Assembly: GCA_035331565.1 (NCBI GenBank)
Contig: DAOLKO010000017.1
Coordinates: 30,832 to 94,831, forward strand
Reading direction: 5' to 3'
Source: Blastocatellia bacterium
Lineage (GTDB): Bacteria; Acidobacteriota; Blastocatellia; RBC074
Length of the DNA stretch: 64,000 nt
Shown here: positions 34,706 through 38,716 of the stretch, one piece after another
Layout of the letters: every line of letters starts with the position of its first letter
Position numbering within the stretch: position 1 is the first letter of the stretch
Translations under genes and position numbers: made by a program
The notes under the pieces: model-generated
What the model saw: only the letters and a program-made list of their open reading frames with translations
Database searches by the model: none
What the model was told of the DNA's origin: nothing

Positions 34706-34945
34706 TCAGCCTTTGGTTTGACAATCATCCTTATTGGCGACGCACGAGCCATCCGGGCATTTGAACAGCATGCCGCAATCGCCGTTCTCGTCCTTCACGA
34801 ACGTGGTTGCGTGCTTCATGAAATCCGCGCGGGTCGGGGCAATCGCCGCCAAAGACCGCAAGGCTTCTTTCTTCCATTTGATCTCCGAATGATGTCCCGG
34901 CACATTGTCCAGGTATTTTTGCAACAACTCTTCTGAAACCGCCAT
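34706..34945 (-). CDS. Small Cys-rich hypothetical protein (79 aa) downstream of the PD40 kinase
   Basis: AAGGAG RBS 9 nt upstream. C-terminal CGMLFKCPDGSCVANKDDC four-Cys cluster. Confidence 0.6.
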   Translation of the reverse strand: MAVSEELLQKYLDNVPGHHSEIKWKKEALRSLAAIAPTRADFMKHATTFVKDENGDCGMLFKCPDGSCVANKDDCQTKG

Positions 34946-35070
34946 AGATCAAGCTCCTTTTTTCGTGATCGGTGTAATGCTTCAGCAGCCTCACTCTCAT
35001 TGTCCTTACAATGGTCTCGGCTGCTGCATAGGGAAGGGCGCAAAAAGCGATGAAAAACTGCCACGCCGCC

Positions 35071-38000
35071 TCACGATTGTTTTTCCAGCAAATGCAGCAA
35101 CTGCCAACTGGCTTGCTTGCTGTAAAACAAACGGCGTCCGTCGGCGGCCCAGGCAGGACTGGAATAGAAAATCGTCGGATCGGAATTGCGGGTAAGCGGT
35201 TTGACGCCGCCGCCGCTCACGTCAATCAGTGCGAGATTGTCGCGCCCCTGTTGACGCGACACGGCGACAATGGTGCGTCCGTCGCGCGCGAGCCGGAGTG
35301 ACGGCAGGTAAGTTGCGGTGAGCTTCAGCAACACTGTTGATTTGCGCCGAACCGGATCAAGTCTGAACATTTCCACGGTTTGCGGCGCGCTCCATTCATT
35401 GGGCGCGCCGGCCGCCAACAAGAGTTCTTGCCCGGCGGAAGTCCAGCCGACAAAATGCAGCGTGGCGTTGCGCTGGTAAAGTAATTCGTTTTTGCCTGCT
35501 TCGTGGAGCCAAATACTGCGAGTGATCGCCGAGGGATTCGTCGAGGCGGTTGACAAGAGATAAGCCAATCGCTTGCCGTCCGGCGACCAACACAGGGAAT
35601 TGACGTTCACATTGCGGTCGGTATTGCCGGTCACATTCGTGTCGTGCGTGCCGTCGCGGTCAATCAGCCACACATTGCTCGTTCCGGACTTGCGCGAGTG
35701 ATAAGCAATCCGCAAACCATCGGGGGACCACGCAAAATCCGTGAAGTAAGCCAGGTAAGGCGTCGGTAAGGCACGCGCAGGAGTGACGGCGTCAACCAGT
35801 CGCCGGGGCATCGTGCCGTCCGCGCCGACACGCCATAGTTCATGCTTGCCCAGCACGAAGCGGAGAAAGGCCACAGCGGTTCCGTCCGGCGACCAACGCG
35901 CGTGTTGGGCTTCCGCCGCCAGCTTCAGCGTTTGGTTGCCGGGCACCAACGGTTTGACGAAGACATCCATTTTTCCGCCGGCGGAATTGCTCGCGGTTTG
36001 GAACAACAATCGTTGCCCGTCGGGCGCAGGCTCCGGGCGGATTTGCAGGCCAAACTCCGAAGTGTGTTCGGTTTCCGTGCCGGCGGCTAAATCCCAGGCG
36101 AAGATGTTGGCGTTTTGCCGAGACGAAACCGCGAAAATCTGATTGCCGGTCGGCCCCGCCACCACTTCGGAATAGTTCTCGCTGCCGGAGGTAATCTGCT
36201 CCACCGTGAGCGTGTCGAGTCGCAAGACAAAAATTTGCGGAGTGCCGCCTTGATTGGCAATCAACGCCAGCCGCTGTCCATCGGGAAACCAACTTGGCGA
36301 ACTGACCGGTTCGGGGCTTTGCCACAACGTCACCGGCGCGCCCGACAAAGATTGCAACACCACGTCATAAGTTTTTTCCCGTGGTTCGAGATAAACGATG
36401 CGGTCACCTTGCGGCGAAGGGCGAAAAGCCCTGAAGACCGGACGCTGTTGATCGAAGTGCGTCAGTTGCTCCACTTGCCCTGACAGCGGATCGAGCGCGA
36501 AAAGGTTGTAGTAAGACTCAAAATAAATGCGTTCGCCGCGCGGGGTGCGTTGCCACGCCACCAGATAATCCACAGCGGCGGATGGCTGCTGCCCCAGCGG
36601 CATAACCTGCGCGCTGCTTGCGGAAGAGGGATAGGAAAGCGTGCGAATCACACGCTGCGTAGCATTTTGCGAAATGATGGCGAGCCGCTTTCCGTCCGGC
36701 GACCAGACAGGATCGGCATCCCGAAACTGTCCGTCCGTCAACTTGATTTCGGCACCGTTGCTGAGTTCCTTCACGACGATGTGCATTTGCCCGTCGCCGC
36801 CCAGACTGAAGGCGATACGCTGTCCATCCGGCGCAGGCGCAGGCCGCGAGAGGTTGCCGCCCAACCCCAGGCGCGTGCTGAAAGGCGTAGTGAACTGCAA
36901 CCGCGCCCGCCCGCCCCAATCGCTCACTACACTTGCGCGTTGCGCGTAACGCCAGATCAGTGCGCCGGCAATCAGCAGGCACAGCAACAGTCCCGCCGCC
37001 AACGCCGGTTTCATCCAACGCGCTTGCCCAATGCGCTTGCCGGACTGGGCCACGGACTTGCTAAACCGCACACTTTCGCCTGACCCAACCGCCTGCAAAT
37101 CCGCCAGTAGTTCCTCGACGGATTGATAACGCTGAGCGGCATCTTTGGCGAGCGCACGCTTGACGATTGTTTCCAGCTCCAGGCCAATCTTGAGCGGTTC
37201 AGGCTCGCTTGCCAGCAGCGCAGCGACCACGTCGGCGTTGGTTGCGCCCCGAAAGGGCGCGTGCCCGGCCAGCATTTCGTAAAGCACGACACCCAGGCTG
37301 AACACGTCTGTGCGCGCATCCACGTCCAATCCACGCGCCTGCTCCGGCGACATGTAACCGGGCGTGCCGATGATCGTGCCTTGCTCCGTGCTTTGCTGTG
37401 GCACGGACGCGGCGTCACTGACGGGTTTCTGCAACAGCTTGGCGATGCCGAAATCGAGCACTTTGACGACGCCATCCGCGCGCAGCATGACGTTCTCGGG
37501 TTTGATGTCGCGGTGGACGATGCCTGCCGCGTGCGCGGCGCTCAGCGCGGCGGCGACTTGTTTGGCGATGGAGACAGCCTCAATCACAGGCAGCGGCCCG
37601 TCGCTGAGCCGTTCGCGCAAAGTCGCGCCCGCGACGTATTCCGCCGCGATGAAATGCAGCGCGCCGTCGGTGCCTACGTCATAAACGGTGATGATGTTGG
37701 GATGGTTGAGTGCGGAGGCGGCGCGGGCTTCGCGCGCGAAGCGCCGCAAACGTCCGGCGTCTTGCGTGAAACGCGCGGGCAGCAATTTGAGCGCGACCTG
37801 CCGCGCCAGCCGCGTATCCAGCGCCAGGTAAACCTCGCCCATCGCGCCCGCGCCCAGTGGCGCGAGGATTTCAAAATGTGCGACGCGGCTGCCGGTCAAC
37901 AGCCGGCTCTGTTCCGCCGCCAATTGCGCGGCTTCGATTTCAGCGGCTTCCAGATTGAGGAATTCACCCGCGCGGTCGTGCGCCGCCAGCATCTGTTCGA

Positions 38001-38124
38001 CTTCGGCACGCAACACGGCGTCCTGGGCGCAGGCGGCATTGAGCAGCGCCGCGCGCGCAGGCGGCGGCAACTCCACGGCGTCGTCAAAAAGTTGCCCGAT
38101 TTGTTGCCAGCGTTCCGGCGTCAT
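35071..38124 (-). CDS. Ser/Thr protein kinase with TM helix and C-terminal TolB-like PD40 beta-propeller repeats
   Basis: Intact kinase motifs ([32 protein letters not shown]). At least 7 W-SPDG-RLA PD40 repeats. Confidence 0.85.
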
Positions 38125-38161
38125 AGGGGGAATGGAGGAAACAAGGTGGAGATGCTGCGCG

Positions 38162-38716
38162 TCAGGCCCGGCTCAGTTGGTGAAAGAGCCAGGCGCGCGC
38201 CAGCTTCCATTCGCGCGCGACGGTGCGCGGCGAAATGCCGAGGAACGTTGCAATTTCTTCAACGGCGAGGCCGCCGAAAAACTTGAGTTCGACGATCCTG
38301 CCGCGGCGCGGGTCGAATTGTTCGAGCGTCGTCAACGCATCGTGCAGCGCCTCGAAATCCGCCTCGCGTTCGGTGCTTTGCCCGTCTGCTTCACTCAACG
38401 AAACCTTGATGCCCTTGCGTTTGCGCGCGTGGTCAACCAGGACGTTGCGCATCACGCCCGCCGCCACGCCGAAAAACTGCGTGCGGCTTTCCCACGCGAT
38501 GTTTTGCCAATCAATCAGCCGCATGAACGCCTCATTGACCAGCGCCGTCGTTTGCAAGGTGTGCCCCGCGCGCTCGTTACGCAAACGCACGCGTGCCATC
38601 CGATGCAACTCAGCTTCGACCAGCGGCACCAGGCGTTCCAACGCCTGCGCATCGCCCGCGCTCCAGGCGCTCAGCCATTGCGTGACTTCCTGCGGCGACG
38701 GTGTGTCCACGCTCAA
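38162..38716 (-). CDS. ECF-type sigma-70 family RNA polymerase sigma factor (STK-associated subgroup)
   Basis: Region 2 (ALVNEAFMRLIDW) and region 4 HTH (LAVEEIATFLGISPRTVAREW). The N-terminal TQWLSAWSAGDAQALERL motif is typical of the kinase-coupled ECF group. Confidence 0.85.
   Translation of the reverse strand: MSVDTPSPQEVTQWLSAWSAGDAQALERLVPLVEAELHRMARVRLRNERAGHTLQTTALVNEAFMRLIDWQNIAWESRTQFFGVAAGVMRNVLVDHARKRKGIKVSLSEADGQSTEREADFEALHDALTTLEQFDPRRGRIVELKFFGGLAVEEIATFLGISPRTVAREWKLARAWLFHQLSRA

Follow-up and report, generated by a model that had tools for sequence, protein, structure and literature searches.

A putative ECF43-type sigma factor and Ser/Thr kinase pair with a predicted outward-facing regulon in a Blastocatellia acidobacterium

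Introduction

In ordinary extracytoplasmic function (ECF) sigma factors the four residues preceding the (V/A)QEAF helix are acidic. To our knowledge, in-depth studies of the group termed ECF43 have been made only for the sigma factor/kinase pairs EcfP/PknT and EcfK/PknS, with a third pair shown for Hyphomonas, and all of these are proteobacterial. The ECF43 consensus is QTTA, and its threonine is the phosphosite at which the cognate Hanks-type kinase activates the sigma factor (PMC13147305; PMC8999054). In Xanthomonas citri the kinase PknS phosphorylates the ECF43 sigma factor EcfK (PMC13147305), and for Vibrio parahaemolyticus the second threonine of EcfP is reported to be the phosphosite that permits binding to the RNA polymerase core (Iyer et al. 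2020, as summarised in PMC8999054). Here we analyse a sigma factor/kinase locus at positions 34,706 to 38,716 of a 64,000-nucleotide stretch of contig DAOLKO010000017.1 (assembly GCA_035331565.1, positions 30,832 to 94,831 of the forward strand) from an uncultured Blastocatellia acidobacterium; this whole stretch is referred to as the window. Its G+C content is ~57%, and its best relatives are metagenome-assembled genomes of Blastocatellia/Pyrinomonadaceae. The reading we favour, with somewhat more confidence than doubt, is that the locus encodes an ECF43-type phospho-switch between a sigma factor and its kinase, governing one sigma-dependent regulon through two promoters that face outward from the pair.

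Like EcfK/PknS of X. citri (PMC13147305), the window system consists of a sigma factor co-encoded with a single-pass membrane Ser/Thr kinase, with no anti-sigma gene beside it. The two also share a threonine in the sigma2.2 patch, a homologous kinase extension of ~80 residues and a large extracytoplasmic sensor. They differ in that EcfK has QATE where the window sigma factor has the consensus QTTA, and in that EcfK/PknS controls a type VI secretion system, none of which is present here. The sensor of the window kinase is built of PD40/TolB-like propellers, and the locus contains an extra four-cysteine protein with its own copy of a promoter-like motif. EcfK/PknS has been shown experimentally, whereas the window system is known from sequence alone. 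The EcfP/PknT pair of V. parahaemolyticus (ECF43), compared here by its published summary, likewise has no DAED-type patch, carrying xTTA instead, and has its kinase encoded nearby; unlike the window sigma factor EcfP has STTA, and its regulon gives polymyxin resistance (PMC8999054). With SigW-RsiW of Bacillus subtilis (PDB 5WUQ) the window shares the sigma2/sigma4 architecture and a bipartite promoter-like motif with a 17-nt spacer. It departs from that system in having no adjacent anti-sigma gene, in having QTTA in place of the EAED of SigW, and in having no motif before the sigma factor's own operon.

The core ECF43-type sigma/kinase pair is already known, with precedents in Vibrio and Xanthomonas. 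What is new is a predicted promoter motif and regulon for an acidobacterial orthologue group, an unannotated four-cysteine protein family tied to the pair, and an association of the kinase N-terminal domain with the presence of a sigma gene. Soil Acidobacteria hold many such pairs, and the analysis extends a known mechanism to an understudied phylum without overturning current understanding.

An ECF43-like sigma factor and its kinase

The sigma factor and the kinase, with their main elements, are located as follows.

38162..38716, minus strand: ECF sigma factor, 184 amino acids from a TTG start; PF07638 Sigma70_ECF/TIGR02999, ECF43-like
38543..38554, minus strand: codons of the QTTA motif, Q55-T56-T57-A58 in TTG numbering, in sigma2.2 in place of the acidic DxxD/DAED patch
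35071..38124, minus strand: Ser/Thr kinase, 1017 amino acids, starting 37 nt past the sigma stop codon
37885..38124, minus strand: N-terminal helical extension of the kinase, residues 1-80 (MTPERWQQI...LR.EVE.LL.AH), from alignment and homology to PknS residues 7-69
37111..37872, minus strand: Hanks-type Ser/Thr kinase domain, residues 85-338 (Pfam Pkinase, 5e-48)
36952..37008, minus strand: single transmembrane helix, residues ~373-391, the sole segment with a mean Kyte-Doolittle value >2 in a hydropathy scan
35074..36927, minus strand: extracytoplasmic PD40/TolB-like beta-propeller region, residues ~400-1017 (~620 residues), from PD40 and TolB matches

A preliminary description of this DNA had placed three open reading frames (ORFs) on the minus strand, for the sigma factor, the kinase and a small protein. 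All three are present where it put them, and Pfam and NCBIfam agree with the identities it gave to the first two (Sigma70_ECF/TIGR02999, Pkinase and PD40/TolB). The sigma factor matches PF07638 (1.4e-47, 162 bits) and TIGR02999 (185.6 bits, cut-off 126) over its full length. A protein annotated as 'ECF-type sigma factor [Blastocatellia bacterium]' (P0131) is 99% identical, and its 182 amino acids fit a GTG start at 38710. Residues 54-64 read LQTTALVNEAF, an uncharged stretch with a conserved threonine where ECF43 requires it, and HTLQTTALVNEAF in sigma2.2 is kept across 25 homologues (57-89% identity). The matching place in SigW reads EAEDIAQEAF, by a profile match (E=0.0015) in which the alignment is shifted at sigma2.2; a phmmer search of the PDB with the sigma factor gave no match. 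On the published consensus, T57 is the predicted counterpart of the phospho-threonine of EcfP and EcfK. From QTTA together with PF07638 and TIGR02999 we infer that the sigma factor is a member of ECF43.

The preliminary description had taken the sigma factor to be of the kinase-coupled type, and this is supported by QTTA in sigma2.2, by the lack of an adjoining anti-sigma gene and by the TolB-like propeller of a cognate kinase of Hanks type. The only neighbours of the sigma gene are those for the kinase and a DUF2272 protein, neither of them an anti-sigma gene; the whole window was not scanned for such genes. The N-terminal extension that had been ascribed to the sigma factor is not found there. 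PF07638 spans residues 9-182, and the alignment to SigW starts at profile position 11 and SigW residue 7. The conserved extension of ~80 amino acids belongs instead to the kinase.

The Hanks catalytic motifs are all intact in the translated kinase, from GxGxx through SPE. In a search of the PDB the kinase matched PknB (5.7e-59) and PknS (3e-39), and the single-sequence alignment to the PknS entry, 9EED, spans query residues 5-296. The propeller region matches Pfam PD40 (1.8e-34, three stretches) and TIGR02800 TolB (5.9e-52, four stretches), the latter below its cut-off. A profile built from 30 of the N-terminal extensions found a sole significant PDB entry, again 9EED, at residues 7-69 (E=1.3e-8). 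This entry is X. citri PknS(1-364) (PMC13147305); in the crystal the 81 N-terminal residues of PknS are disordered, and no function was assigned to them.

Scans with the kinase gave, among the matches listed, only paralogues (<=41% identity over the kinase domain and propeller region), and orthologous loci were reached by way of the small protein, the DUF2272 protein and the sigma factor. The paralogue set comprises 160 loci fetched with the window kinase from GTDB genomes and JGI metagenomes. All of them encode relatives, and they include 109 sigma-kinase pairs, each with its sigma gene directly ahead of the kinase gene. A sigma gene (PF07638) stands directly upstream of 107 of the 137 related kinases that carry the extension and of none of the 18 that do not (Fisher p=5e-11, over loci that are paralogous and so not independent). 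The N-terminal extension therefore looks like a mark of sigma-coupled kinases, and from this co-occurrence we infer that it may be a family-defining feature of kinases of the PknS/PknT type. The helical domain is a candidate for docking the sigma factor, and its statistical link to the sigma gene points to how the kinase finds its substrate.

Two further observations concern the pair. In the sigma linker (38390..38420, minus strand) the window protein and its closest relative, P0132, are without 8 residues, the YQKRGG segment, which almost every other family member has between sigma2 and sigma4. The linker of EcfK bears additional phosphosites (PMC13147305). Two genes at 18941..19495 and 15981..18944 have sizes that fit a second sigma/kinase pair, and were rejected as encoding a membrane protein and IleRS.

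A promoter-like motif on either side of the pair

Two copies of a bipartite motif flank the sigma and kinase genes.

35032..35064, minus strand: motif before the gene for the small protein, GTGGCAGTTTTTCATCGCTTTTTGCGCCCTTCC, with the -35-like TGGCAG at 35058..35063 and the -10-like CGCCC 17 nt downstream; ends ~90 nt before the ATG
38834..38866, plus strand: divergent-strand motif, GTGGCAGTTTCTTCCGTCCATTTACGCCCTCAG; ends ~66 nt before the DUF2272 start codon

The motif has the form TGGCAG-N17-CGC(C/T)C in fixed register, and is found before the small gene at seven loci and on the divergent strand at five. Before the small gene the same register is kept in L001, L002, L083, L084, L085 and L173. 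The divergent copy, which scores 29.4 bits with a position weight matrix (PWM) of 12 sites, has orthologous copies in L174, L002, L166 and L173. It lies in the divergent intergenic region 38717..38928, which measures 212 bp, as previously given, or 218 bp if the sigma factor starts at GTG. When the six spacers between kinase and small gene were aligned, the only conserved blocks were TGGCAGTTTT and, 17 nt after TGGCAG, CGC(T/C)CTT(A). Across nine loci the 12 sites are kept with sigma identity down to 68% and small-protein identity down to 30%, and the other intergenic DNA has diverged. Of the three occurrences of the exact 9-mer TGGCAGTTT in the window, two are at these intergenic sites and point outward. 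The motif is asymmetric and always oriented toward the downstream gene, at ~45-250 nt from the start codon, and its 17-nt spacer matches the -35/-10 geometry of ECF promoters.

Related signals were also observed at the paralogous loci. A two-block PWM was applied to loci outside its training. Of its 65 hits >9 bits, 10 fall on the divergent strand <=500 nt upstream of the sigma gene, where 2.2% would be expected, a ~7-fold enrichment (p=1.5e-6); one hit lies on the sigma strand. The enrichment appears with the two-block PWM only; simple regular expressions gave no enrichment of TGGCAG upstream of the paralogous sigma genes. On the sigma strand upstream of these genes TATAAT and TAGAAT are enriched, which suggests that they use housekeeping promoters, as would be expected under post-translational control. 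In the window the sigma gene has no motif copy ahead of it on its own strand, and autoregulation is therefore unlikely. Scans of both intergenic regions for sigma-70 promoters and terminators gave results at or below chance.

The divergent secreted-protein cluster

The divergent motif faces six genes on the plus strand.

38929..39501, plus strand: DUF2272 protein, 190 amino acids, no signal peptide (Pfam PF10030, 2.6e-19); first gene past the divergent motif
39588..40568, plus strand: lipoprotein p326
40601..40933, plus strand: p110
41046..42035, plus strand: secreted p339
42095..43963, plus strand: BACON/He_PIG protein p622
44006..49501, plus strand: p1831

This cluster (38929..49501; gaps 33-87 nt) had been put forward as a candidate regulon of the sigma factor, and it is a good one, as a -35/-10-like motif stands before its first gene and before homologous secreted proteins in L174 and L173. 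The preliminary description had proposed searching 38717..38928 and the upstream regions at 40.9-44.1 kb for a shared motif; it is found in the former and has no further copy in the latter, the internal gaps of the cluster. Within the cluster we observed no terminator-like sites above chance, no sigma-70-like promoter and no further motif copy. The genes from DUF2272 to p1831 are probably transcribed as a single unit from 38834..38866.

In the closest relative, L174 (sigma 89%, kinase 94%), an identical motif stands directly before a homologue of p339 (91%). L173 (sigma 71%, kinase 60%) has the motif ahead of a 1538-residue BACON/He_PIG homologue of p1831 (52-55%), and its divergent operon continues with genes for a methyltransferase, KAS III and a MacB-type ATP-binding cassette (ABC) system. 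The motif also precedes DUF2272 in L002, L166 and a JGI 16-kb contig. The link between motif and cluster would thus appear to outlive gene turnover, and the secreted-protein cluster is well supported as the predicted regulon. That regulon would comprise a cell-wall-hydrolase-like protein, large BACON/He_PIG surface proteins and the small cysteine protein.

The DUF2272 protein matches its family at 70.2 bits (gathering cut-off 27), with serine replacing the catalytic cysteine within PWSAVFVSW. Members of the family are papain-like and related to NlpC/P60 and CHAP, with serine for cysteine (PMC10318531). In L002, L166 and the JGI 16-kb contig the orthologous sigma gene has a DUF2272 orthologue (76-83% identity) as its neighbour. 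Homologues at 66-67% identity in L169 and L172 sit in unrelated contexts, so the link between DUF2272 and the sigma factor is confined to close orthologues.

Several observations concern the gene content of the cluster. The DUF2272-p326-p110 block (~2.1 kb; window 38867..41045 against L174 1021..1376) is missing in L174, where the motif is followed by a leader of ~250 nt and then by the p339 homologue; this absence is a recent indel inside the predicted regulon. The p339 protein is paralogous to the first ~300 residues of p622; they match the same stretch of L054, L046 and L174, and their shared domain has no Pfam family. Peptidoglycan genes recur beside related sigma/kinase loci or DUF2272, namely GH25 lysozyme, Amidase_2, 3D domain, PG_binding_1 and CHAP. 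They were seen in the JGI contig of P0137, in L173 (14252..15352) and in L172, and hint at a cell-wall or interbacterial theme of these modules.

A small four-cysteine protein next to the kinase

On the other side of the pair lie the small gene and a possible leader element.

34706..34945, minus strand: 79-residue four-cysteine protein, C57-x5-C63-x4-C68-x6-C75
34998..35013, minus strand: small conserved hairpin, CATTGT-AAGG-ACAATG, in what is predicted to be the small gene's 5' leader, from RNAalifold

Kinase and small ORF are 125 nt apart, rather than the 126 nt first reported, and the strong ribosome-binding site claimed for it is present as AAGGAG 8 nt before the ATG. Six homologues were found: two by a word-indexed search, three (P0003, P0004 and P0008) by an exhaustive HMMER search of 1.84 billion representatives, and one in L173. 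The three HMMER additions share the architecture of the window protein. All seven proteins keep C-x5/6-C-x4-C-x6-C and an N-terminal YL.NV.G, and all seven genes keep AAGGAG/ATG. The ratio of non-synonymous to synonymous substitution rates (dN/dS) is 0.15-0.23 where dS is unsaturated, and the small ORF is a genuine gene under purifying selection. It lies ~120-130 nt past the orthologous kinase (60-91% identity) in L001, L002, L083, L085 and L173; the contig of L084 is too short to see its context. The genes beyond it vary by locus, being MerR/DnaJ/HSP20, PTS_2-RNA/PIN or a gene for a PG_binding_1 protein. The small protein is thus conserved and travels with the sigma/kinase pair, the co-conservation that the preliminary description had proposed to check. 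Of the two outcomes that it had named as refuting it, a sigma factor from an anti-sigma-dependent group and an unconserved small ORF, neither was observed.

A tblastn search of the 160 paralogous loci with the small protein, DUF2272, p326 and p110 gave no matches. The small gene is absent from all of these kinase loci and is therefore lineage-restricted. No such small gene was called at a locus whose sigma factor is 66% identical.

The protein had been described as unannotatable, and no Pfam family or PDB fold matches it. Pfam gave no hit to the window protein even at E up to 10. An AlphaFold2 model from an alignment of six sequences (mean predicted local distance difference test score, pLDDT, 84.7) has three helices followed by a cysteine-bearing hairpin, and a Foldseek search of the PDB with this model returned nothing with E below 4. 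Two of the six family members gave weak, below-threshold Pfam hits to the LDL-receptor class A domain (E=0.0012). The C-terminus of the small protein resembles that domain (PF00057), and the repeat of a protein termed P0005, in its cysteine spacing and its F-x-C-x2-G-x-C-[IV] core. It differs from the LDL-receptor module in having four cysteines rather than six, no acidic calcium cage, and an attached three-helix domain of cytoplasmic appearance. Neither a signal peptide nor a hydrophobic segment was found in the small protein, and its N-terminus could not be extended to an upstream start. It was also examined for the features of a zinc-binding anti-sigma (ZAS) protein, and has no HxxxCxxC, no conserved histidine at the required spacing and no anti-sigma Pfam hit.

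How should this protein be placed? The preliminary description made its gene part of the sigma/kinase operon and its product a candidate extra component. Strict adjacency to the kinase agrees with the first proposal; because the gene has its own motif copy, it is better read as a separately promoted target. Conservation with the pair agrees with the second; because the protein is missing from the ~160 paralogous kinase loci (109 sigma-kinase pairs), it is not a core component. We consider it most likely to be a sigma-induced output, possibly one that feeds back on the pathway. A feedback or partner role is plausible given the strict adjacency to the kinase, the promoter that the gene is predicted to share with the divergent operon, and a signal-peptide-bearing analogue at the paralogous locus L005.

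The best-surviving alternative, which we think unlikely, is that the small protein is encoded by a third gene of the operon and itself takes part in signalling, perhaps as an inhibitor of sigma factor or kinase that is sensitive to zinc or redox state. Its gene would be expressed by read-through from the operon promoter, and the conserved block ahead of it would not be a sigma-dependent promoter. The strict adjacency and same-strand orientation in all loci with visible context would fit this view, as would the lack of a terminator-like site between the two genes, and four invariant cysteines without a signal peptide would suit a metal or redox site. Yet the same bipartite motif stands before the divergent operon, where read-through is impossible, and the small gene is absent from the ~160 paralogous loci, with none called at the locus with the 66%-identical sigma factor, which implies that the pathway works without it. 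The protein has neither the ZAS signature nor an anti-sigma Pfam hit, and it is unlike the kinase N-terminal domain. The two views are compatible if the small protein is a feedback regulator induced by the sigma factor.

It is less likely still that the protein acts outside the cytoplasm, through non-Sec export or as a leader-plus-core peptide, and either binds or partners the kinase's propeller there or is a secreted effector. The four-cysteine module does closely resemble a 24-residue repeat of P0005, which is secreted and has a signal peptide (PFKCQNGSCVANISDC, against LFKCPDGSCVANKDDC here), and the weak LDL-receptor class A hits in two of six members (E=0.0012) point the same way. Further support comes from L005, where an 89-residue signal-peptide protein has the same cysteine spacing, from the finding that this pattern occurs only past PD40 kinases, and from L173, whose divergent operon includes MacB-type ABC, ATPase and adaptor genes. 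The small protein itself, however, lacks a hydrophobic segment and could not begin at an upstream start, and no GG-type cleavage motif lies ahead of its first cysteine. There is no maturase or transporter gene in the window's cluster, and the L005 protein is a singleton with no detectable homology beyond the cysteine pattern.

The L005 ORF (10306..10575, plus strand) encodes its 89 residues 122 nt past the kinase of a paralogous sigma/PD40-kinase locus. It has a clear signal peptide, the same four-cysteine spacing (FCPDGQKPCGDGGCIGADENC) and a Pro/Lys-rich tail, and is a singleton by BLAST. A regular expression for the cysteine pattern had eight matches in the six-frame translation of all loci and the window, each of them just past a PD40 kinase. 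Two other identities for the small protein were tried and rejected. Comparison of its helical domain with the kinase N-terminal domain, which it might mimic as a decoy, gave an hhalign probability of 0.6%; and a Nif11-like leader of a ribosomally synthesised and post-translationally modified peptide found no Pfam support at E up to 10, and no maturase nearby. The leader hairpin has six pairs, two of them with compensatory changes across six loci, and is kept in five of the six (-4.9 kcal/mol), which is weak support. A search of 34400..39100 against Rfam gave no match.

Proposed mechanism

Taking the sigma-dependent regulon as the preferred model, we propose that an envelope or extracellular cue would be sensed by the TolB-like propellers of the membrane kinase, which would autophosphorylate and then phosphorylate the co-transcribed sigma factor. 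The likeliest phosphosite would be T57 (or T56) of QTTA, possibly together with Ser/Thr residues of the linker, as in EcfK. The phosphate would supply the negative charge that the sigma factor needs for binding the RNA polymerase core, and the N-terminal helical domain of the kinase probably docks the sigma factor. The active holoenzyme would then fire from two outward promoters, one for the divergent DUF2272/lipoprotein/BACON-He_PIG operon and one for the 79-residue four-cysteine gene. The sigma-kinase operon is probably expressed constitutively, because no motif stands before it.

A number of points weigh against this model. EcfK T51A is still functional in X. citri (PMC13147305), so the QTTA threonine need not be the sole switch. 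That the motif is recognised by this sigma factor would follow from its position, architecture and enrichment at paralogues only, and the 12 sites are not all independent, several being from closely related genomes. When ~128,000 positions were scored with a 33-nt PWM built from non-window sites, 35032..35064 ranked first (36.0 bits) and 38834..38866 third, at 11.7 bits, a value that falls within the maxima of shuffled sequences (mean 9.1, max 19). A third copy at 20528..20560 (minus strand) has no obvious target gene. There is also no terminator in the interval between the kinase and the small gene, so that co-transcription by read-through could occur as well. For the divergent site it is place, orientation and orthologous conservation, and not score alone, that make it a convincing promoter candidate.

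It is very unlikely that the motif is instead a promoter for sigma-54, or that it serves an unlinked transcription factor as its operator, with the synteny due to other shared regulation: TGGCA does resemble the sigma-54 -24 element, L001 and L002 have GC at the -12 spacing, and the motif is unlike the commonest ECF consensus, GGAAC-N16/17-CGT, but the second block lies 17 nt after TGGCAG, off the strict spacing of sigma-54 promoters (GG and GC exactly 10 nt apart, TGGCAC-N5-TTGCW), the -12 GC is missing in four of the seven small-gene sites, the asymmetry, orientation toward the downstream gene and variable distance (~45-250 nt) fit a promoter better than an operator, and related motifs occur at the equivalent divergent position of paralogous sigma loci.

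A bolder proposal, which we offer tentatively and regard as improbable, is that small proteins with C-x5-7-C-x4-C-x6-C are dedicated third components of sigma-phosphorylation pathways with PD40-propeller kinases, induced by the sigma factor from its own type of promoter. They would in turn act on the kinase, from the cytoplasm as a modulator sensitive to metal or redox state or, where a signal peptide is present as in L005, from the periplasm by partnering the propeller; as a separate part of the same proposal, the kinase N-terminal domain would dock the sigma factor. If true, this would equip the ECF43-type switch with a feedback loop of its own, a feature not previously described.

Further sequence elements

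The third motif copy, GTGGCAGTTTGAGCGGTTTTATCGCGCTCGGGT (20528..20560, minus strand; 16-18 bits), lies in the 145-bp gap between tatA (20198..20419, plus strand) and a Schlafen/AlbA_2 gene (20565..21902, plus strand), and points antisense into tatA. It may be a chance occurrence, an antisense promoter or a distant member of the regulon, for example serving a YtxH-like gene (19568..19966, minus strand).

We also observed a different element, absent at the window locus, in a large subfamily of the paralogous sigma genes (L017, L019, L030, L032, L102, L108, L139 and ~20 other loci). It is ~55 nt long, lies 20-65 nt upstream of the sigma start and reads, on the divergent strand, GAGTTTACAACAAATGTTT...GTGAGGGAATCCGG..CAAACGTCCGCGT. 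GTGAGG occurs in 38 of 107 paralogous upstream regions, against ~6 expected. The ~55-nt element may be a promoter or leader element of that sigma subfamily.

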